DNA of 64,000 bases, taken from Anaerovoracaceae bacterium. Its GTDB lineage: Bacteria > Bacillota > Clostridia > Peptostreptococcales > Anaerovoracaceae. The position numbers were made by a program, and so were the translations under genes. Each line of letters starts with the position of its first letter. Position 1 is the first letter of the stretch. Below are positions 8,452-26,099 of the stretch, piece by piece. Under the pieces are notes generated by a model. The model saw only the letters and a program-made list of their open reading frames with translations. It ran no database searches and was not told the origin of the DNA. The stretch spans positions 1,195 to 65,194 of the forward strand of contig JAZQAY010000120.1 in the NCBI GenBank assembly GCA_045545455.1, read 5' to 3'.

Positions 8452-8517
8452 GGTGTTTTTAGGGTTTTTCAAAAGTATTTTTTGCTGTGTTTTAACATAT
8501 GCAGGATCAAAAAATAA

Positions 8518-8531
8518 GGAACACCTGTTTA
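8518..8531 (+). promoter_or_regulatory. candidate LexA (SOS/Cheo-type) box upstream of lexA
   Basis: GGAACACCTGTTTA is a GAAC-N4-GTTT arrangement about 90 nt upstream of the lexA ATG. Confidence 0.35.
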
Positions 8532-8621
8532 CTTTTTGTTCGGCATATGGTACAATTATTGCGAACAGACGAACATACATACTTTATTTTGATATTTGAT
8601 ATATTTAAAGAGGTGTTTGAC

Positions 8622-9284
8622 ATGCTTAAGCCAAGACAGCAGAAGATCCTTGAATTCATGAAAGAAGAGATCTCCACCAAGGGTTATCCTCCTACGGTGA
8701 GAGAGATATGTTCCGCCATAGGCATCAAATCCACTTCCACCGTCCATAAGGACATCGAGACCTTGGTAAGCGAGGGCTATCTTAAGAAAGACCCATCAAA
8801 GCCCAGAGCTTTAATGGTGGTGGATCCTAAGACCAAGTCCGGTCACGTAGACGCAGCCGGCACTGCACAGGCTGCTGAAGGAGATGTTCTTCCATATAAT
8901 GTGGTGGAAGTTCCCGTTGTAGGCCGCGTTGCAGCAGGCGAACCGATCTTCGCTGAGCAGAACATCGAGGATTCCTTCCCTCTTCCCGACCGCTTCGTTA
9001 ACGGCGGTAACAACTTCATGCTGAGAGTCAAGGGAGAATCCATGATAGAAGCAGGCATCATGGACGGTGACCTGATCCTGGTGCAGGAGACCAGCGAAGC
9101 CAGAAACGGCGAGATCGTGGTCGCCCTCATCGACGGTATAGAGACAGGTGCTACGGTCAAGACCTTCTACAGAAGAAACGGTAAGATCTACCTCACCCCT
9201 GAGAATAAGACCATGGGCCCTATCATCGTGGACGATGCCACGATCGTAGGCAAGGTCAAGGGTGTATTCAGGTATTTCAACTAA
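8622..9284 (+). CDS. lexA: LexA repressor
   Basis: Start moved to the ATG at 8622 (AAAGAGGTG SD). N-terminus MLKPRQQKILEFMKEEISTKGYPPTVREI, with the VAAGEP cleavage region and the GESM / K S24-peptidase motifs. Confidence 0.9.
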   Translation: MLKPRQQKILEFMKEEISTKGYPPTVREICSAIGIKSTSTVHKDIETLVSEGYLKKDPSKPRALMVVDPKTKSGHVDAAGTAQAAEGDVLPYNVVEVPVVGRVAAGEPIFAEQNIEDSFPLPDRFVNGGNNFMLRVKGESMIEAGIMDGDLILVQETSEARNGEIVVALIDGIETGATVKTFYRRNGKIYLTPENKTMGPIIVDDATIVGKVKGVFRYFN

Positions 9285-9295
9285 GTAAGCAAACT

Positions 9296-9322
9296 AAAAA
9301 CGGGCTCGGGCCCGTTTTTTTT
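9296..9322. terminator. bidirectional terminator (lexA on +, end of the pyl operon on -)
   Basis: AAAAACGGGC-TCGG-GCCCGTTTTTTTT. Confidence 0.6.
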
Positions 9323-9326
9323 ATTG

Positions 9327-10298
9327 TCATCCTATGACCAGCGGCACCAGCACAGGCACCGACAGGCACATCAGAAGTCCTATTCCGAAGCTGTAGACCA
9401 CGGTATCTTCTCTGGCAGACCTTTCAACTATGGGCATGCACACGTCCATGGCAGCCACTCCGGGAACTGCGCAGGCCTCCACATAGCCGATCTTCTGGGC
9501 CAGGAAAGGTATTCCTATTATTCCTGCAACTTCCCTTAGTACGTTATGAAGGAAACTTATGGCAGAGGCTACTGGGTATCCGGCCTGAAGTATGACGTTA
9601 GGCGCATATGTATACCAGCCGAAGCCGCAGGATATGGCGATCCCCTCCCTGAGAGTCATTGGAGATACGGCAGCGTATATTACGCCCCCAAGAACGCTTC
9701 CCAGAACTGCCGCTATGGGGAAGATGATTATCCCTGCTCCGGCTTTTTTAATGTTTCTGAAGACGGAGCCGTCCAGTCCTAATGTCAGTCCAACGGTGCC
9801 TATCAGAAGAACGAGGCAGGCTGTGAGGTATGGATCCGACTTTATCATGAACTCATCCTGAACTCCGAGTTTTTTATATATCAGGAAATAACCCACAGAC
9901 ATGCCCAGGGCGACGACGATGCCTATGATGATCGTCGATTTGATCCCTCCTACGTCCGTCTTTGCATCCCTGGCCATTTTCTGATCCTTAGGCACCCTTT
10001 CATCCCCCACGTTTCCGTAGCGGTCCATCTTAAGTATCTTTCTGGAAAGAGTGATCCCCAGCACGCTCATGACTATGGTTATTATCGTAACTATGAGCGA
10101 CTGTATGCCGATGGTCCCCAGGGAATCCACGATCTCCTTGTTGGCACCCATCCTGAGTCCCATCAGAAGGACCAGGAGATAGACCATGATGTTCATGGCG
10201 CTCTCTACCCAGCCCAGTTTTTCTTTTCTGTCGCGGAGCTTCATTCCCACGATATACATGAGTATGAGTGCGCTCCAGCACATTGCAAGTAATTTCAT
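9327..10298 (-). CDS. LysO/YbjE-family (DUF340) membrane exporter
   Basis: 323 aa, multi-TM. The C-terminal half (CGFGWYTYAPNV...FLHNVLREVAGIIGIP...AMDVCMPIV) resembles E. coli LysO as I remember it. It starts 9 nt after the pylB stop. Confidence 0.55.
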   Translation of the reverse strand: MKLLAMCWSALILMYIVGMKLRDRKEKLGWVESAMNIMVYLLVLLMGLRMGANKEIVDSLGTIGIQSLIVTIITIVMSVLGITLSRKILKMDRYGNVGDERVPKDQKMARDAKTDVGGIKSTIIIGIVVALGMSVGYFLIYKKLGVQDEFMIKSDPYLTACLVLLIGTVGLTLGLDGSVFRNIKKAGAGIIIFPIAAVLGSVLGGVIYAAVSPMTLREGIAISCGFGWYTYAPNVILQAGYPVASAISFLHNVLREVAGIIGIPFLAQKIGYVEACAVPGVAAMDVCMPIVERSAREDTVVYSFGIGLLMCLSVPVLVPLVIG

Positions 10299-10307
10299 AC
10301 GCGATTA

Positions 10308-11288
10308 TTATAAAAACTCCTTAAATTCTTCAGTGCCGGCTATTCTCAGTCCCATGGATCTGAGTATCTCAGATGCCTCTTCCACTGTCCTTCCGCCTTC
10401 GTCCACGTCCATTACGGAGTTTGCGACTCCCATAAGGCCTGACTTCGGAGGTATGATGGACGTTATGAGATTGGCTCCCGCATCTATCCTTTCCTTAAGT
10501 CCTGCGATGCCGTCCACGTCAAGGGATGCCGGTATCAGGGCCTTCGGATAGAGGATCCTCATCAGTGCGATTATCTTAAGTTCCTCCATGCGATCCGGAG
10601 TCCTTACGTTCTCCATAGGGCTTCCCGGCTGAGGTACGAAGCTCATGACCCTAACCTGCCTGGCCCCTATCTCACCCATGGTGAGCAGGGAATCCGCCAC
10701 ATCTTCAGGTGTCTCGCCTACCCCTGAGAGTATGCCCTCCTCGATGAACATTCCGCAGTCCCCGGCATGGAGTTTGGCGTGCATCCGTTCGTCGTAGTCC
10801 TGATCCTTTCTTAGTTTCCTGAACAGTTCCCTGTTATGGGTCTCCTGATACAGCGCAAAGATATCCGCGCCGGCATCTTTAAACTTATCTATGATCTCGT
10901 CAGGCACTACTCCCGGGGATATCATCACCGGCGTTCCCATGTCCTTGAGCTTTCTGATTATCCTGAGGACCGTTTCGAACCCTTCCCTGTGGTACAAAGG
11001 ATCCTCGCCCATTGTAAGGTCAATGAGGTTTACCCCGGAATCCACCAAAGCCTTTGAAAGGGCAAGCACCTCTTCCTCGGTCTTCCTGTATCTTCCGATC
11101 TCGTTTGACCTTCTGAAATAGCAGAAGTTGCAGTTGTTTCTGCAGTAAGTCGTGAAATACACGAAGCCGTAGGCGAATATCTTATCTCCCTGGACCTGAC
11201 GTCTTATCGAAGACGCACGTTCAAAAAGAGCCTTTATTTCTTTTTCATCATCGAATTCGAGAATGCGTACTATCTCTTCTTTAGTCAT
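10308..11288 (-). CDS. pylB: methylornithine synthase PylB (radical SAM)
   Basis: 326 aa with the CRNNCNFC cluster motif. DLTMGEDP, ALYQETHNRELFRKLR, VRVMSFVPQPGSPME and LIPASLDVDGIAG match methanogen PylB motifs. Confidence 0.9.
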   Translation of the reverse strand: MTKEEIVRILEFDDEKEIKALFERASSIRRQVQGDKIFAYGFVYFTTYCRNNCNFCYFRRSNEIGRYRKTEEEVLALSKALVDSGVNLIDLTMGEDPLYHREGFETVLRIIRKLKDMGTPVMISPGVVPDEIIDKFKDAGADIFALYQETHNRELFRKLRKDQDYDERMHAKLHAGDCGMFIEEGILSGVGETPEDVADSLLTMGEIGARQVRVMSFVPQPGSPMENVRTPDRMEELKIIALMRILYPKALIPASLDVDGIAGLKERIDAGANLITSIIPPKSGLMGVANSVMDVDEGGRTVEEASEILRSMGLRIAGTEEFKEFL

Positions 11289-11297
11289 TTACAGATC

Positions 11298-11618
11298 CTA
11301 TTTATGCGTAAGGTCTGAACCATACGTGTCAAAGAATGTCTTGGAATACTTGAGAAGTTTCCACTCCGGCACCTTGCACTTAGGGCATGGCTTGACGGCC
11401 CACTTGTTCCTGAGCCAGCGGGCTGCCCTGGAGTTCCTCGAGTTATACACCCTCAGCTCCTGTCCGCAGTGGGTGGTGATGATGGCGTATTTCCCATAGC
11501 TCTCTATCGACTTTATTCCGTGAAGTATCCCGCTCCTCGCAGGCCAGAGCTTCATCTTTTCCAGAAGGATCAGAAGCTCCACGTTCTTCCTGTAATATCT
11601 CTTGGTATCATCAGCCAT
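11298..11618 (-). CDS. pylSn: pyrrolysyl-tRNA synthetase N-terminal tRNA-binding protein PylSn
   Basis: 106 aa. LW.ARSGILHGIK...HCG.EL.V.NSRNSRAARWLRNK...CPKCKV matches the PylS N-domain (LWMSRTGTLHKIK...NNSRSCRTARAFRHHK...CKRCRV). The stop codon is TAG. Confidence 0.85.
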   Translation of the reverse strand: MADDTKRYYRKNVELLILLEKMKLWPARSGILHGIKSIESYGKYAIITTHCGQELRVYNSRNSRAARWLRNKWAVKPCPKCKVPEWKLLKYSKTFFDTYGSDLTHK

Positions 11619-11676
11619 AAGTCTCTCCTTATGATGACAAGCCCCCGGGACTCTCAGACCAAGGGGCTATAATAAG

Positions 11677-11748
11677 TGGCGAGGTGACCGGGAGTCTCAC
11701 CCGGCTATCTGGATTTAGAGTCCAGGCGATCAATACGATCCTCACCCC
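11677..11748 (-). tRNA. pylT: tRNA-Pyl (anticodon CUA), CCA encoded
   Basis: Minus strand folds as GGGGTGA-G-GATC-GTATT-GATC-G-CCTGGA-CTCTAAA-TCCAGA-TAG-CCGGG-TGAGACT-CCCGG-TCACCTC-G-CCA (72 nt). It shows the tRNA-Pyl hallmarks: 1 nt between the acceptor and D stems, a 5-nt D loop without GG, a long anticodon stem, a 3-nt variable loop and no T-psi-C motif. Confidence 0.85.
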
Positions 11749-11756
11749 TCGTATTA

Positions 11757-12590
11757 TCACGGCATGGTCTTGAGTATCTCACCAAGCATCATAGCCGTTC
11801 CGATCTCAAGGTTATCATAAACAGCGGTATTTTGCAACCTTGCTGCAGCTTTTTCGTCCAAAGAAAGGGGCACTCCGGGGCTGGCATAGTAAACCTCTTC
11901 ACCAAGGTACTCCTCTGTGAGCCATCCTCCCTCATTCGTGAAATCAAGAATGAATCTGTAGTTCTTTATCTCTTCATAAGAACCGAGGACATATCTCCCC
12001 GTTTCAAGGGCATTGAAAGCATCCACAGCTTTAGGATCCTTGTCGTACATATCGAAATCGATATCATGGTTTAACAGGATCTGGACTGCCTCTTCACCTA
12101 CCAGACCATTTCCGATCACAAGGACCTTTTCTTCAGATATATCAAAGCCCGCTCTCTTCATCATGGCTCTGAGCACCATGATGTATCCCAATGCAGTTGC
12201 ATAGTTGTTCTCGCCGAAGCTTCCGTTGTCCCTGCTGAAAGCCAGATATCTGGTATCGTCTGCCATGAATATGACGCCTGCATCCATAAGTATCGAACTG
12301 TAGATACCGTCTACGTCCGTCTCCTCCGGAACGCAGGTCCTGAAACCCATGGATCTGATGATTGAGCTTATGCAGTCAGAGAAAGAGCCTATTATTCCCT
12401 CGCCCTGAGTCACAGGAACAGCTGCCACCAGCAGCTCCGATGCGTACCTGTCATATCTTTCCTTCGATATGCCAAAGGTATCCATCACCAGCCCCGCAAG
12501 ATCGAAGCCCGTCCTGAGCTTCAATTCGCTGTTATACTTATCCATGCCGTCCGTCATGTGATCTATCCATTCAGTCTTAAGTCTGGTCAT
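11757..12590 (-). CDS. pylD: pyrrolysine synthase PylD (dehydrogenase)
   Basis: 277 aa with VPVTQGEGIIGSFS, FMADDTRYLAF, a Rossmann motif (VIGNGLVG), ASPGVP and LEIGTAMML, all parallel to methanogen PylD. Confidence 0.85.
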   Translation of the reverse strand: MTRLKTEWIDHMTDGMDKYNSELKLRTGFDLAGLVMDTFGISKERYDRYASELLVAAVPVTQGEGIIGSFSDCISSIIRSMGFRTCVPEETDVDGIYSSILMDAGVIFMADDTRYLAFSRDNGSFGENNYATALGYIMVLRAMMKRAGFDISEEKVLVIGNGLVGEEAVQILLNHDIDFDMYDKDPKAVDAFNALETGRYVLGSYEEIKNYRFILDFTNEGGWLTEEYLGEEVYYASPGVPLSLDEKAAARLQNTAVYDNLEIGTAMMLGEILKTMP

Positions 12591-12603
12591 AACCGACTCC
12601 TTT

Positions 12604-13449
12604 CTATATGTTCAGCGGTTCACCGTCGATAAATGAAAGCGTTCTCCCATACCTCTTGATGGTGCGCCCCTTATCCAGCGCCATGGTGAGCCTCTCTATA
12701 CCGAAACCGATACCCACCCAGGTATCAAACACTCCCCAGTTGGCATCCAGGAAATGGGGTCCATATGAACCTGAGGCCACTTCCATTCCGTTTATCAGTA
12801 TGTCGAACGAGACCTTGCCGTAAACCTCAGAGTCCTCCTGTACGAATTCGTATTCGCCTTCCTTGAGGCCCAGGGCTTCCATGGCGTTAAGCGCAAGCCT
12901 TTCAAGTTCCTGAAGCTGCTCTCCGTCCTTTACGGAAGCCAGTTCCACGAGATTAAGCATGGTGAACTCGTTCAGGTGCTGTGCACCCTGAGATTCCTTC
13001 CTGAAGCAAGACCCCATCTCAAAGATCTTAACGGGCTGTTTGGTGATCCTAAGGAGCTCCCTCATCTCAACGTAGAGATTCGGGGCAAGCATAGGTCTTA
13101 AGCAATGCTTTCCGTCCACCCAAAAGACCTGTTCCAGAAACTGCGATCCCGAGTCTATCCCCATCTTCTTAAGGGAGTCCTTCGATATGATCGTAGGAGT
13201 TATCACCTCGGTGAATCCCTCGTCCATAAGCCACTGGCACATCTTATTCCCCGTTATGCGGTATTTCGTCATGTGGCGGGATCCGAGAAGATCGTAGATA
13301 TCGTTTCTGGCATATCTCGTCAGTTCCTTTTCAAGCTTTCTGAAATGCTCGTTTCTCTCTTCCTTTGTTTCAAACTCCCTGTCCTGCTCCTCTTCAGGGC
13401 AGTTCAGTTCGTTCAGCCTTTCTGACTGTGTAACAGTGTATTTCTCCAT
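12604..13449 (-). CDS. pylSc: pyrrolysyl-tRNA synthetase catalytic subunit PylSc
   Basis: 281 aa with VITPTIISK, FWVDGKHCLRPMLAPNLY, CFRKESQGAQHLNEFTMLNL and GIGFGIERL. These are nearly identical to the Desulfitobacterium PylSc motifs as I remember them. The stop codon is TAG. Confidence 0.9.
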   Translation of the reverse strand: MEKYTVTQSERLNELNCPEEEQDREFETKEERNEHFRKLEKELTRYARNDIYDLLGSRHMTKYRITGNKMCQWLMDEGFTEVITPTIISKDSLKKMGIDSGSQFLEQVFWVDGKHCLRPMLAPNLYVEMRELLRITKQPVKIFEMGSCFRKESQGAQHLNEFTMLNLVELASVKDGEQLQELERLALNAMEALGLKEGEYEFVQEDSEVYGKVSFDILINGMEVASGSYGPHFLDANWGVFDTWVGIGFGIERLTMALDKGRTIKRYGRTLSFIDGEPLNI

Positions 13450-14534
13450 TTCAGCACCTCGTGCTCATCCTTTCCCCAATTGATGAATATTCCCCTGAAA
13501 TCGGACGCAGAGTCCTTATAGTCAGTCATGGTCTCCATGGAGCCCATGAAACATTTTCTGAAAGTGAGAGGCCCGGCATCCCTCATGATGTGCTCGCCCT
13601 CCTGAGTTATGACGCCGTTTGATTTTTTATAGTTCTCATAGGCGCAAAAGATCTTTTCCTGACCCTTTCCCGCAGTGTTCTCATCCCTGAATCCGCCGTA
13701 AAGAGTGACGTCCGTCAGTTCCTTAAGGAGGTTCATGCCAGAAGATTTAAGAACCGCTATGGGCGTCTGGCTGGGTATCCTGGCGTCGATCTCAAGGACC
13801 TTAAGGTCTTCCCCATCGTCGATCACTTCCACGTCCATTATTCCTTTGAGACCGACCAGTTCGGCCAGCCTCACCGCGATATCTGAAAATCTTCTCAGTT
13901 TTTCTTCGGGAAGTCTTACCGGAGAAGTGATCATATAGCAGTCGTATCCCTTGTCCACGTGGACTTCCGTCACGGTATAGGTCCTGTAGTTTCCCGGCCT
14001 TCCTATGACCTCGATGGAGTAAGAGGGTCCCTCCAGATACTCCTGGATGATATCTCCTTCTTTTTTCTCCTTAAGCGCCGCTTCCAGTTCATCCTCAGTA
14101 CATATTTTCTTTACTCCTGTGGATCCGGACCCGTCAGACGGTTTCATAACGTAGGGAAGTTTGCCTTCAGGATAATACCTGGGGCACGGTATACCGTTAT
14201 CCATGAACAGCCTGTCCGACTTTATCTTTGACTTTGTGATCTCATATGCGGCCGGATCGAAAGCGAGAGGCTTATGATACCTTTCTGCAAGTTCGCAGAT
14301 CTTGGCCAGAAGTTCATCGTTTTCGTTTGCAGGAAGTATGATGTCCGCCTCCCTGAAGGCTTCAAGTACGGCGGGGGCCTCATTCACCAGATCTCCCGGT
14401 ACGAACCCGTAAGCCAGCCCTCCCGCCGGAACTTCAGGATCTATATCTATCAGTATGCTTTTCATGCCGCAGGCTCCGGCTAGGTAGCATGCCTCCGTGC
14501 CCTGCAGCCTTCCTCCGATAATACAAATTTTCAT
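13413..14534 (-). CDS. pylC: 3-methylornithine--L-lysine ligase PylC (ATP-grasp)
   Basis: 373 aa with MKICIIGGRLQGTEACYLA and GIMDVEVI...LKVLEIDARIPSQTP. The ATG directly abuts the upstream stop (TAAATG). Confidence 0.9.
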   Translation of the reverse strand: MKICIIGGRLQGTEACYLAGACGMKSILIDIDPEVPAGGLAYGFVPGDLVNEAPAVLEAFREADIILPANENDELLAKICELAERYHKPLAFDPAAYEITKSKIKSDRLFMDNGIPCPRYYPEGKLPYVMKPSDGSGSTGVKKICTEDELEAALKEKKEGDIIQEYLEGPSYSIEVIGRPGNYRTYTVTEVHVDKGYDCYMITSPVRLPEEKLRRFSDIAVRLAELVGLKGIMDVEVIDDGEDLKVLEIDARIPSQTPIAVLKSSGMNLLKELTDVTLYGGFRDENTAGKGQEKIFCAYENYKKSNGVITQEGEHIMRDAGPLTFRKCFMGSMETMTDYKDSASDFRGIFINWGKDEHEVLKWRNTLLHSQKG

Positions 14535-16811
14535 TTAAAACCTCATGGCAAGCATGTATTTTTCCTGGAAGTCAGATCTGGTAGCAAGTTCTACATGTTC
14601 TATCGTTTCCGCAGCTTTTACGGTCTCACCGAAAGCGTCCTCTGAAAGGAGAGCCATGGAAGCACCGATACCTGCCGAGTTTCCGATCGAAAAGATCTTA
14701 TCCCTGTCTATATCGGGAATGAGACCGCAGTTTACGGCGGATTCCTTTCTGATGTATGAACCGAAGGCTCCCGCTATGGATACCTTTGCAAGATCATCTT
14801 TGGACATTCCGAGTTCGCTCATAAGCGTTTCCTCGCCCGCCTTGATGGCTGCCTTGGCAAGCTGGATCTCCCTCACGTCCTTTTGGGTTATCATTATGTC
14901 GTTTCCTTCAGGGTCCTTATACAGGGTGAGATAATATCCCTCTTCATTCTTGCCCACGCTGTCTATGATGGCCTGAGGAACGCCCTTCTTTAAGAGTTTT
15001 TCAGGAGGCAGAAGTTTTCCTGTCTTATCAACAACTCCGGTCCTGACCATCTCGCCTATGGCGTCGATTATACCTGAACCGCAGATGCCTGTGGGTTTAC
15101 AGTCTCCTATTACGCCTATCTTCACGCCCTCCTCCGAAAGGTCCACCCTTTCGATGGCTCCGGATGCCGCACGCATGCCCTGAGCGATCGAGCTTCCCTC
15201 AAATGCGGGTCCCGCAGCAGTTGAACATGTGGCTATCCTGCCGTTTCCGCTGAAGACGATCTCCCCGTTCGTTCCTATATCGATGAAGAGATGTCCCTTA
15301 TCCTTATCCAGGATATCCGTTGCTATAAGGCCTGCGGTAATGTCAGAACCAACATGGCCCGCGATGTTCGGAACAAGCTTGAGCTCTGCGTCATCGGCTC
15401 CCTTAAGGCCGAGTTCTGCAGCCTTCCTGAATACCGGTCCCTCAAACTGAGGTTTGAACGGCGATACAGCCAGACTTCTCGGATCCACCCCGAGAAAAAG
15501 ATGAGACATGGTGGTATTCCCTACCACGACGTACTTTCTGATGGCTGAAAAGTCGTAGGCCGATCCTTCGATGAAGCCCTCCACCGACTTATTGATGCCC
15601 TTTATCACGCTCTTGTGGAGAGCCTCCAGGCCCTTCTCGTTTTCCATGGTGTATTGGATCCTGGAAATGACGTCGGCCCCCCAGGTTCCCTGTGGATTGG
15701 TGAAGGCGTCGATATCCAGCATTTCTCCTGTCTCCAGATCCCAGAGCATAACTACTACGGTGGTCGTTCCTATATCCACGGATACTCCCAGGCACTCACC
15801 CCTGTCAGCCTTAAAGCCTTCAGGAAGCTTCACCAGTTTCTTTTTTCTCTTAGCGGTAGTCTCCACCTCAGGAACCGTTACAGTCATGCCGTCCTCAGGA
15901 GCAACTGCACAGGCAAGTTCATATTTTTCAACACCTATAGCAGTCCTTATCCTCACCCGGCATTTGAGGCAGGTACCCTTGCCTCCGCAGTTGCCGTCGA
16001 TGTTCACACCGACTTTGGAAGCGCACTCAAGGATGGAACCAAGGGCCTTCCCCTTATACTCTATGTTCATGGGCATGAATCTCATTGAGATCGTTTCGCC
16101 CTCTTGTTTTCTTCTCATATTTATCTCGCAGAAGTCACAGCCCTTGGAATTTCCCATGCATCTCATGCAGGCCGGCTCCTTCTCAAGTTCGTGATTCAGC
16201 ACAAAAAACAGTCCGGCACAACTCTTCTGCGGTATCATCATACCGCTGTCCCTGACCTTGACACCTATGGCGCCTGCGTCCAGGATCTTTTCGAATTCTC
16301 TGGTACGGCCTACGAACATGCCGTAATAACCGGGGCCGAACTCCTCGGACAGAATGACGTCCTTACCGGGGAAGCGTTCCTTCATGTCGGGGATCACGTA
16401 GTCCTCCCTCAGGGCTTCAATCCCGGAATCCACGTATGAATTCCCCCAGATATCCGCGAAGAGGAATTCCATGATCTTATCCTCAGACTCAAAGAGACAT
16501 TCTCCCACGGTCATCATGTAGATGTATATTCCCTCCACGTACTCAGGAGGGATCCTGGTGAAATAGTTGCAGTCCAGGACCGCGTCCTCAATGCAGATCT
16601 TACCGTCTCTGAAGGCTTCCGGGCCGACGAACCTCACCACCGATCTGATGTCGATACCTTCTACTCCGCTTTCTCTGGCCTTAAGACCTTCTGCAAGCAT
16701 CCTCTGATGTTTCCTGGAACCTCCCGGCACGATGCCGCAGGTATTGAGAAACCTCTTCTCAGCACCGGCATGCGCCCTCTCTTCACTTATTCTTATTACT
16801 TGATTCAGCAT
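14535..16811 (-). CDS. reductive activator of corrinoid enzymes (RamA/RACE-type: MetH-activation-like domain + 2Fe-2S ferredoxin + ASKHA ATPase)
   Basis: 758 aa with a 2Fe-2S motif (CGGKGTCLKCRV) and ASKHA phosphate motifs (VDIGTTTVV, IDIGTNGEI). The N-terminal ~230 aa resemble the B12-dependent methionine synthase activation domain. Confidence 0.7.
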   Translation of the reverse strand: MLNQVIRISEERAHAGAEKRFLNTCGIVPGGSRKHQRMLAEGLKARESGVEGIDIRSVVRFVGPEAFRDGKICIEDAVLDCNYFTRIPPEYVEGIYIYMMTVGECLFESEDKIMEFLFADIWGNSYVDSGIEALREDYVIPDMKERFPGKDVILSEEFGPGYYGMFVGRTREFEKILDAGAIGVKVRDSGMMIPQKSCAGLFFVLNHELEKEPACMRCMGNSKGCDFCEINMRRKQEGETISMRFMPMNIEYKGKALGSILECASKVGVNIDGNCGGKGTCLKCRVRIRTAIGVEKYELACAVAPEDGMTVTVPEVETTAKRKKKLVKLPEGFKADRGECLGVSVDIGTTTVVVMLWDLETGEMLDIDAFTNPQGTWGADVISRIQYTMENEKGLEALHKSVIKGINKSVEGFIEGSAYDFSAIRKYVVVGNTTMSHLFLGVDPRSLAVSPFKPQFEGPVFRKAAELGLKGADDAELKLVPNIAGHVGSDITAGLIATDILDKDKGHLFIDIGTNGEIVFSGNGRIATCSTAAGPAFEGSSIAQGMRAASGAIERVDLSEEGVKIGVIGDCKPTGICGSGIIDAIGEMVRTGVVDKTGKLLPPEKLLKKGVPQAIIDSVGKNEEGYYLTLYKDPEGNDIMITQKDVREIQLAKAAIKAGEETLMSELGMSKDDLAKVSIAGAFGSYIRKESAVNCGLIPDIDRDKIFSIGNSAGIGASMALLSEDAFGETVKAAETIEHVELATRSDFQEKYMLAMRF

Positions 16812-16836
16812 TTGTTTTTTATGTGTATTATTTAAG

Positions 16837-16961
16837 CAAAAGTATGTGATTCGGATATTCCACAGCGTCGGTACTTAGCGATTGCCAAGCTTTCAGCGCA
16901 GGCAGAGCTTAGTACCGTTACGCGAGGACAAAGTGCAAACGGTCCGAATCACATACTTTTG
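16837..16961. repeat. 125-nt long imperfect inverted repeat (19-bp perfect outer arms)
   Basis: CAAAAGTATGTGATTCGGA (16837-16855) pairs with TCCGAATCACATACTTTTG (16943-16961). The interior is again partly self-complementary (CGGTACTTAGC / GCTTAGTACCG). Confidence 0.7.
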
Positions 16962-16978
16962 ATTACCGGGAATGCACT

Positions 16979-17019
16979 TGAAAAACAAAGGGTGGTCCGT
17001 CTCCTTGACTTACCACCCT
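16979..17019 (-). terminator. intrinsic terminator after mtbB
   Basis: Minus strand reads AGGGTGGT-(15 nt)-ACCACCCT followed by TTGTTTTTC. Confidence 0.6.
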
Positions 17020-17074
17020 GTTGTTATAAAAGTTGGTTTGTTTCTGAATTCAGGTTAGTTCTAAGTCAGTTCTC

Positions 17075-18481
17075 TTATTTCAGTCCTGCCCTCTCCTTGA
17101 ACCTTTCAACGGAGTTGATCTTGATGTCGAGAACTTCAGCTATCCTGAACTTGGCTGCCATGCCGTTGTTTTCTTCTTTGCAAGGCTCTACGTGGCAAAG
17201 TCCAAGTCCCATATCTCTTCTGACATCGGACATTGTTACTACGTCGCATAATTCTGCAACGGTCACACCGAGCTTAGAAGCTACATACTCCTTCGCCTCG
17301 TCGATCTTCATCTTCTTGGCGAGCTGCATTCTGAGTACCAGGTCACCTGCCGTACGTACTCCTCCCATGCCAGCGCAGATAGCATGTGTAGCCTCCTGGC
17401 CCAAAGGATCACCTACGCCTACCTAGAAGCCGTCGATCTTACCCAGCTCGACGAGAGCTTTGTCAGCTCTTGACATTACGTCAACGGGCATGATCTCTAC
17501 CATCGGGATACCGCAAACACCCATACCTACGTCAGCGTGTACGGGGATGTTGGCTACCTTGGTGCAGGCCTGTACGAAAGTGATTACTCTGGCCATGTTC
17601 CATGCAAAGGATTTGTTGCAGTTGGTATTGACTACAAGTCCGAAAATTGAAGCTCCGGCCTGCTCAGCAAGCTTTACCTGATCATGAGGATAAAGGCCTG
17701 CGAGACGCTTGCCGTTGTATTTCAGCTTACCATGCATACCGAGAACGAATTCTCCTGCCATTCCGATCTCAACGGGGAAATCGGGATATTTGGTAGTGAT
17801 GGCTTCACAAGCTCTGAGAGCGGCCAGGAAGTCCGCATCACCTGCTGCTCCGCAGGTGTCAAGGTTCATTCCGTCAGCTCCTACGTCATAAGCCTGATCA
17901 GCTACATAGCAGATGTCCTTGATGGAATATTCAACTGCCTCCTCCTGTGCTTCAAGGGCTTCCTTGATGTGTCCGTCAGGAAGAAGTGTTGCCCAGTTGC
18001 CCGCGGGGCCATCCGGCTTGGTGTAGAATCCAAGGTCGGGCATGCCGCCGAAAAGCAGAGGCATAGTCGTAACGTTAAGGGCCTGCTTGAGAGCTCCCGC
18101 ATCACGCTTGGCAACTCCTTTAGCGGTCTTATAGTTGTAGTCGGTGTTTCCGATATCAACGGAATCGCATCCGAGACATCTCTCGTAGATAAGGGTCTCC
18201 ATTTCCTTAGGGAGAGGCATCTGAGACTTGACGTTGATCTTGTATCCGCCGGAGTCGTTGGTATTTACGATCTCTTTGCCGGGTTCAACGCCGACCACAC
18301 CGCCGGGCATGGTGATGATCTCATAGAGACGTTCGAAGTCTTCTTCGCTCATGGGGTCGATCTTACCGCGCTTGACGGCATCAGCCATGCCTTCACGCAT
18401 GTCTTGTCGGATCTCTTCCTCGGTCATGAAGACGATCGAACCATCACCCATTCGGCTTTGGTATTTCTTTTCTTCTGCCAT
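17075..18481 (-). CDS. mtbB: dimethylamine:corrinoid methyltransferase MtbB, Pyl-containing (in-frame UAG)
   Basis: Track ORFs 17423..18481 and 17075..17404 share one frame. They are separated only by TAG plus six sense codons (VGVGDP). The joined product is 468 aa. ...VELGKIDGF-[UAG]-VGVGDPLG...AGDLVLRM...EAKEYVA parallels methanogen MtbB around its Pyl. Confidence 0.9.
17423..17425 (-). other. in-frame amber (UAG) codon of mtbB, predicted pyrrolysine
   Basis: Plus-strand cta = minus-strand TAG. The reading frame is open on both sides. Confidence 0.85.
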
Positions 18482-18514: not shown

Positions 18515-20002
18515 TTATCTCTTGGACGCTTTGAACTTAGCAAGCTCTTCAGCTTCTCTCTCGCCCTCTTCAACGATGTTGTGGATAGCTCTCTGGATAT
18601 CCTCAGGAAGGGGTTCGGGATGATAATTCTCTAAGATATCGATGGCTTTGGCATGGGCAGCTTCCGTCATGGTCATTGAACCCTTCTTCTCCCAGGTCTC
18701 TCTCTGCGTACGGTCGATATACCTGGTGGTGGAAAGTTCTTTTCTCATGTACTTCAGAGTATGTCTTGTAGCCAGATAGTTGTTGGCAGGACCTACCTCC
18801 TTGATAACGTCCAGTGCCAGTGTATCTTTGTTGACGGGGATACCGTATTCGAGTCTCCTTGACATCCTTGAGATCTCCGCGTCACAAAGCAACTGCTCAT
18901 AGCTCATTGTCATACCCATTTCCATCATTCCCATTCCGTAGATCAGGTTGGAGCCTGCAAGTGCGGGAACGACGTTTGTGATGGTCTTTTCATGTCCTAA
19001 CTGGACATCGAAACATTTGCTGTCCGCCTACGTGCCGCCTACGTTAGTAGGTATTCCGTAATAGTGTCCGATCTGGCCTACCGCAGCTGAACACATGGCG
19101 TGCTCAGGAGCGCCTACCGGAGACTGTGCGGTCTTCATATCCATTATGGTAGTGGATGTACCGTAAAGGATGGGGTTTCCGGGATTCAGAATCTGGGATA
19201 AAGTGATTCCGGAAAGGATCTCAGCATTGGTGCATACCAGCGTTCCTGCCATCGTGGCGGGAGTGGTCGCTCCGCAGAGTCCCATGGAAAGGATGTCGAT
19301 GGGAAGTCCGTACTTGGCTGAAAGCCTTATGATGGATGTCTCATTCTCATTCACTTCCAGAGGGCTGTTGGGGCAGGCACCCATGGTGATGATGGGTCTT
19401 TCTCTCAGCTTATCATATCCGCCCTGGATAAGGGCAGCCATGTCGATGAATCTCTGTGTGTTTTTGATACCTTCAAGGTCGTGAGCGAAGTTCTTGGTAA
19501 GGTTGTTGAGAACTACCTCAGCTTCGTGAAGGGATCTTACCTTCTGGTTTACGTCTCCTGCTGTAACTGCTATGGAGAAGCAGTTGATCTCAGGGATGGC
19601 GTCTACGAATCTTGCTACGTTTCCGAGGTCTTCCTTGGTGGATTCTCTCAGTTCTCCGGTATAGGGGTCAAAGATGAATACGCCTGTTCCGAAGTTCTTG
19701 TAGCATACTTTCTTACCTCCGAGAACGGTATCGTTCTTGGGATCTCTTCCGCAAAGCGTGATCTCTGCGGGAGTGGACTCGATGGCATCATTAACAAGGC
19801 CCTTGGGGAACCTTACTCTGTCATTTTCATAATCAACTTCACAGCCTGCGCCTTCTAATATTTCAAGCGCTTCCTTGCCGTGCATCTGTACGCCGAAGTC
19901 ATGCATGAGATCCAGAGTCGCTTCATGGATGGCATCGAGATCCTCATTGGTCAGAACATGATAACCGAGCATGTCGGTATCGTAAGTAAACTTCTTGCTC
20001 AT
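18515..20002 (-). CDS. mttB: trimethylamine:corrinoid methyltransferase MttB, Pyl-containing (in-frame UAG)
   Basis: Track ORFs 19028..20011 and 18515..18934 are in one frame. Between them lie TAG plus 31 sense codons (ADSKCFDVQLGHEKTITNVVPALAGSNLIYG). The joined product is 495 aa from the ATG at 20002 (AGGAG SD). Confidence 0.9.
19028..19030 (-). other. in-frame amber (UAG) codon of mttB, predicted pyrrolysine
   Basis: Plus-strand cta = minus-strand TAG in the context ...IPTNVGGT-[UAG]-ADSK... Confidence 0.85.
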
Positions 20003-20035
20003 ATGATTCACTCTCCTGTTCAGCTTTTTGGCTGT

Positions 20036-20683
20036 TTAGTTGTTTGCGATCCAGTCCATTATGAAGTTAACTGTATCAGATGCGTCTTCGCAGTACTGGT
20101 CTGCACCGATCTTATCTGCCCAGCGTCCTGTAACAGGAGCTCCGCCTACCATGGTCTTTACCTTGTCACGGATACCTGCTTCCTTGAGTGCTTCCTCGAT
20201 ATCCTTCTGAACTGTCATGGTGGTGGTAAGGAGTGCCGATGAACCAACGAAATCTGCGTTATGCTCGATAGCTGCGTCTACGAAGTTCTGAGCGGGAACT
20301 TCTCTTCCGAGGTCTACTACCTTGACGCCGTTTGTCTTGACAAGTGAAGCAACGATACCTTTTCCGATATCGTGAACGTCGCCTTCAACTGTTCCGATTA
20401 CCAGGGTACCCTTCTGCTGAACGTTGGACATATCCATCTTGCCCTCGATCTCTTCAGATACGGTCTTCATTACTTCGGTTGCAAAAATAAGTTCAGGAAG
20501 GAAGATCTCACCCATACCGAACTGATCTCCGAGTTCCTTCATGCCGGCGCTGTAGCCCTGTGTAAGCAGCTCGACCAGGTCAAGGCCTTCTTCTTCGGCC
20601 TCCTGGAGTGCTTCCATAGCCATATCCTCATCTGCTTCAATGATGGAATCTTTGGCTTTCTCGTAAATTGCTTCTTTAGCCAT
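20036..20683 (-). CDS. mttC: methylamine-type corrinoid (B12-binding) protein
   Basis: Start moved to MAKEAIYEK (GGAGGAAAATTT-ATG). It has the helical cap plus B12-binding Rossmann domain with the DxHxxG motif (GDVHDIGK). Confidence 0.85.
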   Translation of the reverse strand: MAKEAIYEKAKDSIIEADEDMAMEALQEAEEEGLDLVELLTQGYSAGMKELGDQFGMGEIFLPELIFATEVMKTVSEEIEGKMDMSNVQQKGTLVIGTVEGDVHDIGKGIVASLVKTNGVKVVDLGREVPAQNFVDAAIEHNADFVGSSALLTTTMTVQKDIEEALKEAGIRDKVKTMVGGAPVTGRWADKIGADQYCEDASDTVNFIMDWIANN

Positions 20684-21056
20684 AAATTTTCCTCCAAACA
20701 ATAATTTATATGCTTCTTTTCATCCGTGTAGTATTCCTAATATACTACGTTTATTATTATACAACTTTTGTGTCAAGCTTTGTACAGTATAAAAGGCGAT
20801 TAGTTTGCAATAGTTTTTCATTTTGTTGCCATCATGCACGTTTTAGTTATGCATATTTTGTATTAAAAAAACTGTATTCATAACTTATTTGCCAATGCGT
20901 CAAAAATGCCGGGCTTGTGCAAAATAGTTCAGTAAGATAGCAAACTAATTTTGATAATTGTTAAGGAAGAATCTATTGATTTATAGTAAAATATATACGT
21001 AGGTTTATATCGTTATATATCAACTATATTTAACTATAAGAAGAACAGGTGATTTT

Positions 21057-22421
21057 ATGGGTAAAGAATTAATAATCAAAACGTTAAGACACGAAAAGAC
21101 AGACGATATCCCCTGGGTCCCCTTTGCAGGCGTGCACGCCGGAAAGTTAAAGGGCTATACAGCTCAGGAACTTCTCACGGATGAAGACAAGCTTGTGGAA
21201 TCCCTTCTGGAAGTGGATAAGATCTACACTCCTGACGGACTTCCCGTGCTGTTTGACCTCCAGGTAGAGGCAGAGATCCTGGGCTGCGAACTCAAGTGGG
21301 CCAAGGACAATCCGCCTTCAGTAAAATCCCACCCCTGGGAAGGCCCCAACAAGGAGATACCCTGCGACTGCAAGATCCCTACTGAGGAAAGCGGCAGGAT
21401 CCCCATGATCCTGAATGCCATGAGAAGAGTAAAAGCCGAGATCGGTGACAAGACAGCCCTCTATGGACTCATTTGCGGACCCTTCACCCTCGCTTCTCAC
21501 TTGAGAGGAACCGAGATCTTCATGGATATGGTGAGCGATCCGGAGTACACCAAGGCTCTCGTAGGATACTGCGCTAAGGTAGCCATCGAAATGTCCAGAA
21601 TGTACATCGATGCCGGTATGGATGTCATAGCTGTAGTAGACCCTCTGGTATCCCAGATCTCTCCCAAGATGATCAAGAAACTCTTATCAGAGAGCTTCAC
21701 CGCAGTATTCGACTATATCAGATCCCGCGGAGCATACTCCTCCTTCTTCGTATGCGGAAACGCTACCAAGCAGATCGAGGTTATGTGCGAGATGGGACCG
21801 GACGGCATCTCCATCGATGAGAACGTCAACATGCCGAAGGCTAAGGAAGTTACCGACAAGTTCAACATCACTCTCGGAGGAAACATTCCTCTTACCACCA
21901 CCATGCTCTTCGGTAACCAGCAGGACAACATGAAGTGCGTAGTCGACCTTATCGACTCCGTAAGAGAAGTATCCGACGGAAACTTCATCATAAGCCCCGG
22001 CTGCGATATGCCTTATGACACTCCGATCGAGAACACCGTTGCCTGCGCTCAGGCAGTCAAGCACCTCGATTCAACCAGAGAGCTCATCAAGAACTACGAG
22101 ACGGTTGTTGATACCTCAAACGTTGAGATCCCCGATTATGCAAATTCCGACAAGGTCATCGTAGAACTCTTCCTGCTGGATCCCGACCAGTGCGCAGCCT
22201 GCTTCTATATGAGAGCTGCCGTCGAGGATGCTTATGAAGAGATCAAAGACTTTGCTGAGTACAGGGTTTACAAGTACTGCGTAAAGGAAGACATCCCCAG
22301 ATACGTCAAGATGGGCATGACCAACCTTCCTACCATGACCATAAACGGCGAGCAGAGATTCATCTCCATCATTCCTTCCAAGGAAGAGCTGATCTCAGCC
22401 ATCAAGGAATACGTAAAATAA
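21057..22421 (+). CDS. URO-D family methylcobamide methyltransferase (MtbA/MtaA-like MT2) fused to a C-terminal thioredoxin-like domain
   Basis: 454 aa. Residues 1-~350 have the MtaA/CmuA/URO-D pattern (PWVPFAG..., FFVCGN, ISPGCDMP). The last ~90 aa form a Thioredoxin_3-like module with CAAC. Confidence 0.65.
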   Translation: MGKELIIKTLRHEKTDDIPWVPFAGVHAGKLKGYTAQELLTDEDKLVESLLEVDKIYTPDGLPVLFDLQVEAEILGCELKWAKDNPPSVKSHPWEGPNKEIPCDCKIPTEESGRIPMILNAMRRVKAEIGDKTALYGLICGPFTLASHLRGTEIFMDMVSDPEYTKALVGYCAKVAIEMSRMYIDAGMDVIAVVDPLVSQISPKMIKKLLSESFTAVFDYIRSRGAYSSFFVCGNATKQIEVMCEMGPDGISIDENVNMPKAKEVTDKFNITLGGNIPLTTTMLFGNQQDNMKCVVDLIDSVREVSDGNFIISPGCDMPYDTPIENTVACAQAVKHLDSTRELIKNYETVVDTSNVEIPDYANSDKVIVELFLLDPDQCAACFYMRAAVEDAYEEIKDFAEYRVYKYCVKEDIPRYVKMGMTNLPTMTINGEQRFISIIPSKEELISAIKEYVK

Positions 22422-23338
22422 TGATAAAACTCATAATGCTTACCGGATTCTTAGGATCCGGTAAGACTACTTTACTTCAAAAGTTAATAGATGAGTATGC
22501 CGGATCGAGGACCGGCATACTCATCAATGAGTTCGGTGCCGTAAGCGTCGATTCCGATATCATAAGAAGAGACGGTCTTCAGATGACGGAACTGTCCAAC
22601 GGCTCAATTTTTTGCGCCTGCATAAAGGATAAGTTCGTGGATGCCCTTATAGAGCTTTCGGGAAAGGATCTTGACTATCTTTTCATCGAGGCTTCCGGGC
22701 TTGCGGACCCCGCCAACATGAACGATATCCTGGAAGGCATCGCTCCAAGGCTCGAGAGAGGATTTGAATACCTCCACTCTTTCTGCGTGATAGACGGATC
22801 GGGTTTCATGGATCTTCTGGACGTTCTGGAATCCCTGAGGCATCAGGTATCCTTCAGCGATATAGTGATCCTTAACAAGCGCGATCTCATCACTGATGAG
22901 CAGGAAAAAGAGATCTGTTCTGCGGTCCTGGAGCTTAACCCGGAGGCAAATATTATTCCTGCCAGCTACTGTGATATAGACATAAGATCGGCGATGGATT
23001 CTCCTTCCGGTATCCGTAAGGATTCCGAGGAGAGCTCCAACACCTTTGCAGCCCGTCCGGTGACAGTCATTTTAAAGGAAAGGCAGCCCGTAAACCAAGA
23101 AGATCTCATGGACTTCATCAGCGAGATCGCAGGATCCACCTACAGGATCAAGGGCTTTCTGAATACTGATAAGGGCATGATGAAGCTGGATTGCGTGGGA
23201 ACTGAGATATCTGTTGAACCATGGAACGGAGAGATAACCGAGGTCAAGGCTGTCGTCATCTCCTCCGTAGGTATAAGGATAGTTACGGTGGTCACCCAAG
23301 CCATGATGAAATATACGAAAGGAAGCCTTACGCTTTGA
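22421..23338 (+). CDS. CobW/COG0523-family G3E GTPase (metallochaperone-like)
   Basis: 305 aa with a P-loop (GFLGSGKTTLL). The region around the usual CxCC reads NGSIFCAC. NKRD guanine-specificity motif. The start overlaps the upstream stop (TAATG). Confidence 0.7.
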   Translation: MIKLIMLTGFLGSGKTTLLQKLIDEYAGSRTGILINEFGAVSVDSDIIRRDGLQMTELSNGSIFCACIKDKFVDALIELSGKDLDYLFIEASGLADPANMNDILEGIAPRLERGFEYLHSFCVIDGSGFMDLLDVLESLRHQVSFSDIVILNKRDLITDEQEKEICSAVLELNPEANIIPASYCDIDIRSAMDSPSGIRKDSEESSNTFAARPVTVILKERQPVNQEDLMDFISEIAGSTYRIKGFLNTDKGMMKLDCVGTEISVEPWNGEITEVKAVVISSVGIRIVTVVTQAMMKYTKGSLTL

Positions 23339-24806: not shown

Positions 24807-25748
24807 TTATTTTCTTGCCTGTTTTCCCAGGACCTCGCATTTCATGCCAAGGCTCTCGAAGTAAGCCTTTATCTCCTCCACCCTGTCGTCAGCGGGAGGT
24901 TCGAAAGTCTCAGGAGTCTTGCCAACGTTTCTGGTCTTTGATACTCCCAGCGTGTGGTAAGGAAGGAGGAAAACGTCCTCGAGTCCCAGCTCCCTGTACA
25001 GTTCTCCGGATCTCTTTATGATATCCTCCGTATCGTTCACTCCCTTGATAAGGGGCATCCTCATCATGATCTTAGGAAGCACTTCGGGATCCTTCGCAAG
25101 GGTCCGCAGATTGTTCAGGATGATCTCATTGGAGTGACCTGTGTAAGCCTTATGTACCTCATCATCGATAGCCTTCATGTCGAAGAGAATGTTGGTGACA
25201 GCGGGCTTCTTAGCCATGGCATAGAGTCTTTCTCCGTCTCCATAACCTGAAGTATCGAGACAAACACCTATGCCCTCCTCTTCAGCCAGCTCTATGAGAG
25301 CATCGCAAAAGTCAGGCTGTGCCAGCATCTCACCTCCCGAAAGAGTCATGCCTCCGCCTGTGTGGTCATAGAATCCCTTATCCTGCTTCACGTACTTCAT
25401 TACCTCTTCAGGCGTCATCTCCTCGGCCACAGGATCCAGAGAATTGGCATAGCATACTTCCGTGCACTTCATGCACATGTCGCACTTCTCACGGTCTATG
25501 TCGATCTTTCCCTTTTCGTCAACGAAGATAGCGTTCTGAGGACATTCCTTGATACAGTAGCCGCACTTGATGCAGCTGTTGGGAAGTCTGATGATCTCCT
25601 GTCCGAAATCTATCATCTCAGGATTGTGGCACCACCTGCAGTTAAGAGGACAGCCCTTGAGGAAGACCGTCGTCCTGATACCGGGACCGTCTTCAGTACT
25701 GAACTTCTGCAGCGACCCCACAAGAGCCGTTAACTTCTTATCACTCAT
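24807..25748 (-). CDS. glycyl-radical enzyme activating enzyme (radical SAM)
   Basis: 313 aa with CPLNCRWCHNPE plus two ferredoxin-type clusters (CIKCGYCIKECP, CDMCMKCTEVC). Confidence 0.85.
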   Translation of the reverse strand: MSDKKLTALVGSLQKFSTEDGPGIRTTVFLKGCPLNCRWCHNPEMIDFGQEIIRLPNSCIKCGYCIKECPQNAIFVDEKGKIDIDREKCDMCMKCTEVCYANSLDPVAEEMTPEEVMKYVKQDKGFYDHTGGGMTLSGGEMLAQPDFCDALIELAEEEGIGVCLDTSGYGDGERLYAMAKKPAVTNILFDMKAIDDEVHKAYTGHSNEIILNNLRTLAKDPEVLPKIMMRMPLIKGVNDTEDIIKRSGELYRELGLEDVFLLPYHTLGVSKTRNVGKTPETFEPPADDRVEEIKAYFESLGMKCEVLGKQARK

Positions 25749-25789
25749 TTACATACACTCCTTAAATGGGCATAATAAGTCAAATCACC

Positions 25790-26081
25790 GGCAGCCTGTA
25801 TATATTTGCGGTTTCCGCAGAAGTGCTGGATCAGCCTGCGCAGAAACGAAGCTGAGCGGCCAGATGTCCGAAACTGTCTGAGCTATCTGTCAAATCAGTA
25901 GGTGCTGTGTGAAGAGAGAGGCACTGCATGCTCACATGCGAGTGCATCTCTATGAACAGAGCAGCGAACGCAGTTCGCGCTGATTTGACAGATTGGCGAG
26001 TTTTTCGGGCTCTCCGCAAAGCAAGTTTCGAGCAGTCTCTGATCCAAACGACGAGGACTTAGCAAATATATACAGACTGCC
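25790..26081. repeat. 292-nt nested imperfect inverted repeat (rod-like hairpin) between the GRE and its activase
   Basis: The outer arms GGCAGCCTGTATATATTTGC / GCAAATATATACAGACTGCC match at 19 of 20 positions. GGATCAG/CTGATCC follows inward. An inner perfect 14-bp pair is ATCTGTCAAATCAG (25885-25898) / CTGATTTGACAGAT (25980-25993). There are apical sub-hairpins. Confidence 0.7.
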
Positions 26082-26099
26082 AGTCAATTTTAAGCTATA

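Follow-up and report, generated by a model that had tools for sequence, protein, structure and literature searches.

The 64,000-nt stretch of the Anaerovoracaceae contig JAZQAY010000120.1 considered here, which will be called the window, carries on its minus strand, between positions 9327 and 16811, a cassette with the complete gene set for the synthesis and the decoding of pyrrolysine (Pyl), the 22nd amino acid. This cassette is a genuine and ordinary member of a known system, one gene relocation away from the order that is common in its clade. Judging from its sequence and from that of its relatives, the region is very probably a functional, chromosomally native Pyl operon of a rumen or gut Clostridia bacterium related to Anaerovoracaceae, with a gene order that would be a derived variant of the arrangement of this clade.

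In the direction of transcription, the cassette comprises a RACo-type activase gene, pylC, pylSc, pylD, the tRNA-Pyl(CUA) gene, pylSn, pylB and a gene of the LysO family. The gene set and the minus-strand placement put forward in the original prediction were confirmed by open reading frame (ORF) and tRNA calls, and all ORF, tRNA and junction positions were verified on the sequence. These elements are as follows.

14535-16811, minus strand: RACo-type corrinoid reductive activase, 758 aa, first gene of the unit
13413-14534, minus strand: pylC, 3-methylornithine--L-lysine ligase of the ATP-grasp type (TIGR03909)
12604-13449, minus strand: pylSc, catalytic (large) subunit of pyrrolysyl-tRNA synthetase (PylRS), with a TAG stop (TIGR02367)
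11757-12590, minus strand: pylD, 3-methylornithyl-N6-L-lysine dehydrogenase (TIGR03911; PylD_N)
11677-11748, minus strand: pylT, tRNA-Pyl with anticodon CUA, 72 nt, CCA encoded
11298-11618, minus strand: pylSn, small tRNA-binding subunit of PylRS, 106 aa, with a TAG stop (TIGR03912)
10308-11288, minus strand: pylB, radical S-adenosylmethionine (SAM) methylornithine synthase, 326 aa (TIGR03910)
9327-10298, minus strand: LysO-family (PF03956) membrane protein, 323 aa, last gene of the unit (Pfam Lys_export)

For comparison, one genome per GTDB species was scanned, which yielded 202 species with a PylSc relative, and the best 80 loci were retrieved (L001-L080). Gene order was classified in 88 loci, namely these 80 genome loci and L081-L088, by mapping the seven proteins with tblastn and pylT with ARAGORN and nhmmer.

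The identity of the five Pyl proteins stands as it had been proposed, since each of them exceeds the cut-off of its Pyl-specific NCBIfam equivalog model, well above the generic radical-SAM, ATP-grasp and class II aminoacyl-tRNA synthetase (aaRS) models. PylB scores 444.9 bits with TIGR03910 (cut-off 348.2) against 132.8 bits for the runner-up family, HydE, and its translation shows the CxxxCxxC motif (CRNNCNFC). PylC reaches 342.9 bits with TIGR03909 (cut-off 248.3; runner-up family 61.3 bits), PylD 166.4 bits with TIGR03911 (cut-off 150.05) along with a Pfam PylD_N match at 9e-29, PylSc 259.4 bits with TIGR02367 (cut-off 178.15; generic aaRS models at most 38 bits) and PylSn 121.2 bits with TIGR03912 (cut-off 51.15). 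Because M1 and the N-terminus of PylSc are kept in the alignment of relatives, the start codon assigned to pylSc is supported. Both PylRS subunit genes end in TAG (12604-12606 and 11298-11300), a stop used by about 6 of the roughly 55 window genes, and in pylSn an in-frame TAA two codons further on abuts the ATG of pylB. An autoregulatory role for these stops was considered and rejected, given that they are not conserved even in the closest relatives and that their frequencies across the 80 related loci (36% for pylSc and 26% for pylSn) resemble those of the other cassette genes (19-39%, with pylB, pylC and pylD at 23-26%).

The tRNA gene is equally characteristic. A 3-nt variable loop, the T-loop TGAGACT without TTC, a small D-loop without GG and a long anticodon stem, all hallmarks of tRNA-Pyl, can be read in the sequence, and the general tRNA model of Rfam gave no match to pylT. 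ARAGORN placed tRNA-Pyl(cta) at 11677-11750, with two acceptor-stem mismatches, which implies a gap of 6 nt after pylD. When 50 related pylT genes were aligned, conservation and acceptor-stem covariation (e.g., GGGGTGA/TCACCTC, GGGGTGC/GCACCTC and GGGGAAC/GTTCCTC) were seen to begin at G11748, and the gene was therefore delimited as 11677-11748. This shift of the ARAGORN end from 11750 to 11748 bears out the distance of 8 nt between the pylD stop and pylT that had been given originally.

The cassette was described as tightly packed, and this holds, only about 97 of its 7485 nt being non-coding. The start of pylC abuts the activase stop (TAAATG, a gap of 0 nt), pylC and pylSc share 37 nt, an overlap that is kept in L001, L002, L003, L017 and L034, pylSc and pylD are 13 nt apart, and gaps of 9 nt separate pylSn from pylB and pylB from the LysO-family gene, all in agreement with the figures first reported. 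The widest spacer, absent from that account, is the 58 nt between pylT and pylSn, the others ranging from 0 to 13 nt. Shine-Dalgarno sequences precede pylSc, pylD and pylSn, and all seven ORFs are intact.

Published pyl gene orders are pylTSBCD in archaea and pylTScBCDSn or pylSnScBCD in bacteria (Borrel et al. 2014, PMC3941956). The canonical bacterial order keeps pylB-pylC-pylD together and places pylT and/or pylS at the ends, and the window, which reads C-Sc-D-T-Sn-B, departs from it. The cassette shares with the Desulfitobacterium hafniense type (pylTScBCDSn), or with pylSnScBCD, the same six elements, the split PylSn/PylSc and the link to the mttB family. However, in the D. hafniense type pylT leads and pylB-pylC-pylD are contiguous, whereas in the window pylSc is found between pylC and pylD, pylT between pylD and pylSn, with pylB as the last of the pyl genes. 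In Methanosarcina, pylTSBCD provides the same functions for the UAG codons of mtmB, mtbB and mttB, and a corrinoid activase (RamA) is likewise needed, but PylS is a single fused protein, T-S-B-C-D are contiguous and RamA has another architecture, the window activase scoring below the TIGR04270 cut-off. A pylB set apart from the other pyl genes is also known from 'Ca. Methanomethylophilus alvus', where it lies about 0.7 Mb from pylTSCD (PMC3941956); that system is archaeal and without PylSn, and its pylB is far off instead of having moved inside the same operon.

Such departures from pylTSBCD, pylTScBCDSn and pylSnScBCD would fit a uniquely scrambled Pyl operon, a new organisational type unseen in sequenced genomes, and no description of the window gene order was found in the literature searched, in which the coverage of subscription journals was incomplete. 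Nevertheless, the survey renders such uniqueness very improbable. The exact order RACo-C-Sc-D-T-Sn-B-LysO was found in six full loci, of which L001 (the rumen metagenome-assembled genome (MAG) RUG12614, PylSc 98% identical to the window) and L017 (a goat MAG, 89%) are GTDB species representatives, and L081, L082, L085 and L086 are long metagenome contigs. Four truncated loci, L083, L084, L087 and L088, the last from the NCBI MAG assembly GCA_024684715.1, fit the same order. In these window-order loci PylSc is 89-98% identical to that of the window (it is not measurable in L084, which is without pylSc), and in the contigs that are long enough the cassette is flanked by mttB-mtbB and, at its other end, by lexA-infC-rpmI-rplT. 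The original prediction had itself allowed that many sequenced genomes might already show this exact order, and this is largely what the synteny survey revealed. Thus, the claim of a novel order holds insofar as the cassette differs from both the archaeal and the bacterial textbook orders, but the order is not unique, and its interleaved core is the commonest in the clade, cultured species included, the order being a small variant of an arrangement found in dozens of public genomes of gut and rumen Clostridia.

The commonest class among the surveyed loci was R-B-C-Sc-D-T-Sn(-LysO), where R stands for the activase gene. It was found in 26 loci, two of them with a duplicated RACo gene, with PylSc 52-69% identical to that of the window, and it takes in Emergencia timonensis SN18, a complete Ihubacter genome, Senimuribacter and many MAGs. 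About half of the 80 genome loci, those of the cultured E. timonensis and of the complete Ihubacter genome among them, had the core C-Sc-D-T-Sn behind RACo. The wider clade also presents the permutations R-Sc-D-T-B-C-Sn, R-T-B-C-Sc-D-Sn, R-Sc-Sn-D-T-B-C and R-B-C-Sc-D-Sn-T, and at least eight orders of the six pyl elements were counted within one family-level clade (L001-L088). In these rearrangements pylB-pylC and pylSc-pylD usually travel as blocks, and the RACo-type activase gene almost always leads, directly upstream. Gene order in this clade is fluid, and in this family pylSc normally stands between pylC and pylD, and pylT between pylD and pylSn.

The closest known arrangement is that of E. 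timonensis, Ihubacter, Senimuribacter and other Anaerovoracaceae, with which the window shares the RACo gene in first place, the core C-Sc-D-T-Sn, the split PylRS and the LysO-family gene in last place. Across the E. timonensis/Ihubacter/Senimuribacter type, PylSc is 64-69%, PylB 74-75% and PylSn 82-83% identical to the window proteins. In these relatives pylB is found directly upstream of pylC, whereas in the window it follows pylSn. Additionally, in E. timonensis and similar loci pylT and pylSn are separated by a cobW GTPase gene, and pylSn and lysO by the gene of a PadR regulator (L015 11852-12802 and 13146-13520), neither of which is present in the window cassette. The Emergencia-type spacers are also wider (e.g., 170-240 nt between pylC and pylSc), and the N-terminal domain of the activase is a separate gene there. 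In comparison with these relatives, then, pylB has shifted from upstream of pylC to downstream of pylSn, cobW and padR are gone and the cassette is more compact. Since the identity of PylB to its Emergencia-type counterparts (74-75%) is in step with that of PylSc (67-69% in this comparison) and PylSn (82-83%), pylB was probably relocated within the lineage and not acquired from outside. The presence of Pyl-type mttB in Emergencia and Anaerovoracaceae has been noted before (PMC10653893).

From these comparisons, an ancestral order RACo-pylB-pylC-pylSc-pylD-pylT-(cobW)-pylSn-(padR)-lysO may be proposed, from which pylB would have moved 3' of pylSn, with loss of cobW and padR and shrinkage of the spacers. 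In the clade of the window, a protein of about 235 aa that is encoded just upstream of RACo in E. timonensis is fused to RACo. Other positions of pylB are seen in close relatives, as it sits after lysO in L003 (PylSc 72%), and in L002 (PylSc 89%) and L034 (95%) pylSn is directly followed by lysO (L002 5826-5852; L034 12154-12175). In the locus DNA of these last two (7.8 kb and 20.8 kb, respectively) pylB was not found, being either elsewhere in the genome or lost. The only cobW-like gene in the window lies at 22421-23338, on the opposite strand, and adjoins a gene for an MtaA/CmuA-type methyltransferase fused to a thioredoxin-like domain (21057-22421).

Directly upstream of the cassette there is a methyltransferase operon with the following genes.

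20036-20701, minus strand: MttC/MtbC-like corrinoid protein, first gene of this operon (TIGR02370, 222.6 bits, cut-off 215.3)
18515-20011, minus strand: mttB, trimethylamine methyltransferase, with one in-frame TAG at 19028-19030 (TIGR02369, 4.2e-118 for the part upstream of the TAG)
17075-18481, minus strand: mtbB, dimethylamine methyltransferase, with one in-frame TAG at 17423-17425 (TIGR02368, 3.3e-96 for the part upstream of the TAG)

The mtbB and mttB genes are the clients of the cassette. The read-through translation of mtbB gives ...GKIDGF*VGVGDP..., with its TAG inside a match to the Rfam family PYLIS_2 (42.1 bits, gathering score 36), and that of mttB gives ...NVGGT*ADSK..., with its TAG inside a match to PYLIS_3 (73.3 bits, gathering score 38). 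These genes bear on another reading, according to which the cassette would be a decaying or recently transferred island whose Pyl decoding is no longer supported. It could be argued in its favour that L002 and L034, otherwise identical loci, are without pylB at the locus, a sign that the lineage tolerates rearrangement and loss, and that an element resembling a miniature inverted-repeat transposable element (MITE) has been inserted at the head of the operon. However, the seven ORFs are intact, the five Pyl proteins are above their equivalog cut-offs, the client genes keep their in-frame TAG, G+C is uniform and the flanking synteny is conserved in relatives, so that decay or recent transfer appears highly unlikely. 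Horizontal acquisition of the cassette was also rejected as such, as G+C is flat across the region (0.47-0.52), with no compositional break, and the flanking genes are conserved in relatives.

It is well established that PylB, a radical-SAM enzyme, converts L-lysine into (3R)-3-methyl-D-ornithine, that PylC joins 3-methyl-D-ornithine to a second lysine, and that PylD oxidises the ligated product, which then cyclises to pyrrolysine. In the operon proposed here, the split PylRS, made up of PylSc and the tRNA-binding PylSn, would charge tRNA-Pyl(CUA), to be read at the single UAG of the mttB and mtbB mRNAs, and the RACo-type activase would maintain the corrinoid protein as Co(I). Lysine or an amino acid of the Pyl pathway would probably be carried across the membrane by the LysO-family permease.

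At the two ends of this unit the following elements were identified.

16981-17018, minus strand: terminator-like hairpin after mtbB, GGGTGGT-N15-ACCACCC followed by TTTGTTTTT
16833-16965, minus strand: MITE-like insertion that separates the hairpin from the RACo start, about 150 nt long and bounded by terminal inverted repeats of 23 nt
9296-9319, both strands: bidirectional intrinsic terminator with a 10-bp stem and T-runs on both strands, common to the cassette and the convergent lexA
8499-9284, plus strand: lexA, convergent with the cassette

The eight elements of the cassette most likely form one transcript ending at 9296-9319. A single transcript is likely because the spacers are short or absent, Shine-Dalgarno sequences are found at pylSc, pylD and pylSn, and there is neither an internal terminator nor a conserved pylT promoter; no terminator-like site with a convincing T-tract was found inside the cassette. 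Excision of the tRNA by ribonuclease P and 3' processing would then cut the mRNA into a RACo-pylC-pylSc-pylD half and a pylSn-pylB-lysO half.

A different division, into two or more units such as RACo-pylC-pylSc-pylD followed by pylT-pylSn-pylB-lysO from a promoter in the 3' end of pylD, has some arguments on its side, since a promoter-like GTGAGA-18-GATAAT (11782-11753) ends 5 nt before the tRNA, tRNA genes often have promoters of their own and pylT heads the cassette in other members of the clade (R-T-B-C-Sc-D-Sn). However, this match scores 9/12, and matches of this kind are no commoner than in shuffled sequence, 13 promoter-like matches having been found against 11.4 expected. Moreover, the weak -10-like hexamer GATAAT is not kept in L001 (GAAAGA), L017 or L034, for which reason a dedicated promoter before pylT was rejected. 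Hence, a division of the cassette into separate units is considered unlikely, and a single transcript is preferred.

With regard to the upstream end, both terminators reported at first proved real, the upstream one as the hairpin at 16981-17018, which was not caught by the terminator scanner because its loop exceeds 8 nt, and the downstream one as the stem at 9296-9319. The notion of a unit bounded by the two is nevertheless sustained only in part, because an independent promoter after the upstream hairpin is doubtful, with the RACo start 10-25 nt away in most close relatives. The 94 nt that follow the mtbB stop (16981-17074) are nearly invariant in close relatives, including the hairpin loop, which contains AAGGAG, whereas the adjacent sequence varies. 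As the RACo ATG lies 10-25 nt past the T-tract of the hairpin in four relatives (L001, L002, L017 and L085) and the 94 nt are almost invariant, entry by read-through is possible, and transcription would probably enter the cassette at least partly by read-through of the conserved mtbB hairpin.

An extension of this idea makes the cassette the distal part of a long mttC-mttB-mtbB-RACo-pyl-lysO transcript, with the mtbB hairpin as an attenuator, partial or regulated, through which the Pyl machinery would be expressed at a lower level than the methyltransferases. The 10-25 nt between T-tract and ATG in the four relatives leave no room for a promoter, the invariance of the 94 nt stands out amid variable sequence, and the minus strand showed no promoter-like site from 16812 to 17075. 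On the other hand, the hairpin and TTTGTTTTT constitute a textbook intrinsic terminator, the 55 conserved nt before the hairpin could hold a promoter, the insertions present here in the window, L034 and L081 may alter regulation, and the invariance of the stem leaves covariation uninformative about it. The long transcript is therefore regarded as a real but tentative possibility, somewhat less probable than its opposite, and the eight-element unit, entered at least partly by read-through, is retained as the preferred description.

The segment between this hairpin and RACo folds strongly, 16812-17030 (the insertion together with the terminator hairpin) giving -83.1 kcal/mol with z = -7.5. The insertion is missing from L001, L002, L017 and L085, and partial copies are found in L034 (two sites) and L009 (one site). 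It looks like a small MITE-like mobile element lying outside the ancestral operon. A riboswitch or leader was considered for the folding element at 16820-16985 and was rejected because most close relatives are without the element and partial copies of it occur elsewhere; Rfam gave nothing in it, even at E-values up to 1.

By its Pfam middle and C-terminal domains (Raco_middle 1.9e-51, RACo_C_ter 1.1e-78), the activase is a member of the wider RACo/ASKHA family. It falls under the equivalog cut-offs of AcsV (374 bits versus 800) and RamA (TIGR04270, 141 bits versus 500). The protein is a fusion of an N-terminal domain of about 235 aa, a 2Fe-2S-like segment and the RACo middle and C-terminal domains. 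Over its first 240 aa it shares 56% identity with an independent ORF of E. timonensis (L015:4874-5716) that overlaps the start of the RACo gene there (both within L015 4874-7530). This N-terminal domain ends in the Cys-rich motif CMRCMGNSKGCDFC, and it belongs to no Pfam family, with only a faint match to Met_synt_B12, the MetH activation domain (E 0.044).

The LysO-family protein has a Pfam Lys_export (PF03956) assignment (1e-51, 175.6 bits, gathering score 23.8) and no match in NCBIfam. In 24 of the 80 related genome loci a homologue adjoins the pyl cassette, PylSc sharing at least 59% identity with the window protein in each of these 24, and none was detected beside the more distant cassettes among the 80. 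Wherever the locus is long enough and PylSc identity reaches about 59% or more, the permease gene keeps its place beside pylSn, whatever else has been rearranged. No link between LysO and pyrrolysine was found in the literature searched. It may be speculated that the Pyl operon of this clade holds two undescribed parts, although the probability assigned to this proposal is low. The LysO-family permease would be a dedicated transporter of lysine, pyrrolysine or 3-methylornithine, serving the supply of precursors or the removal of free Pyl or its intermediates, and the mtbB-RACo hairpin would be a regulated attenuator tying the UAG-decoding machinery to the transcription of the UAG-containing methyltransferases. 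If this were true, such an attenuator would be a means of keeping amber read-through in check across the genome of a bacterium in which TAG is still an ordinary stop.

Several points weigh against the reading of the region as a native, functional operon with a derived gene order. The single transcript, the processing of the tRNA and the read-through are all steps that we infer, and RACo, pylB and lysO are without clear Shine-Dalgarno sequences. The mtbB hairpin looks like a competent terminator, and the insertion of about 150 nt could bring its own promoter, though it has no sigma-70-like match. At the top of its anticodon stem, the tRNA of the window, L001, L002, L017 and L034 has a C-A mismatch (CCTGGA/TCCAGA), while six Watson-Crick pairs are formed in L003 and in the Emergencia-type tRNA-Pyl. 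The ancestral order was deduced from a biased sample, the best 80 of 202 PylSc-encoding species, and the role ascribed to the LysO-family protein is a guess, its linkage to pyl being confined to the sub-clade with PylSc at least 59% identical.

As for its significance, the cassette adds a well-supported Pyl-decoding lineage of rumen or gut Clostridia, with predicted demethylation of trimethylamine (TMA) and dimethylamine, and it indicates that the two textbook bacterial pyl orders under-describe the real diversity. The understanding of pyrrolysine biology is unchanged by this finding. In practical terms, the compact 7.5-kb cassette could be a convenient means of obtaining a bacterial split PylRS/tRNA pair and the biosynthetic genes on a single fragment.

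In the surroundings of these genes, infC with its L20 leader is found beyond lexA. On the minus strand, about 6 kb from the methylamine genes, there are genes for a glycyl-radical enzyme and its activase (24807-28493), the enzyme belonging to the TIGR01774 subfamily (680 bits) and scoring under the CutC and HypD equivalog cut-offs. This pairing is notable because relatives within the Anaerovoracaceae are reported both to make and to consume TMA.

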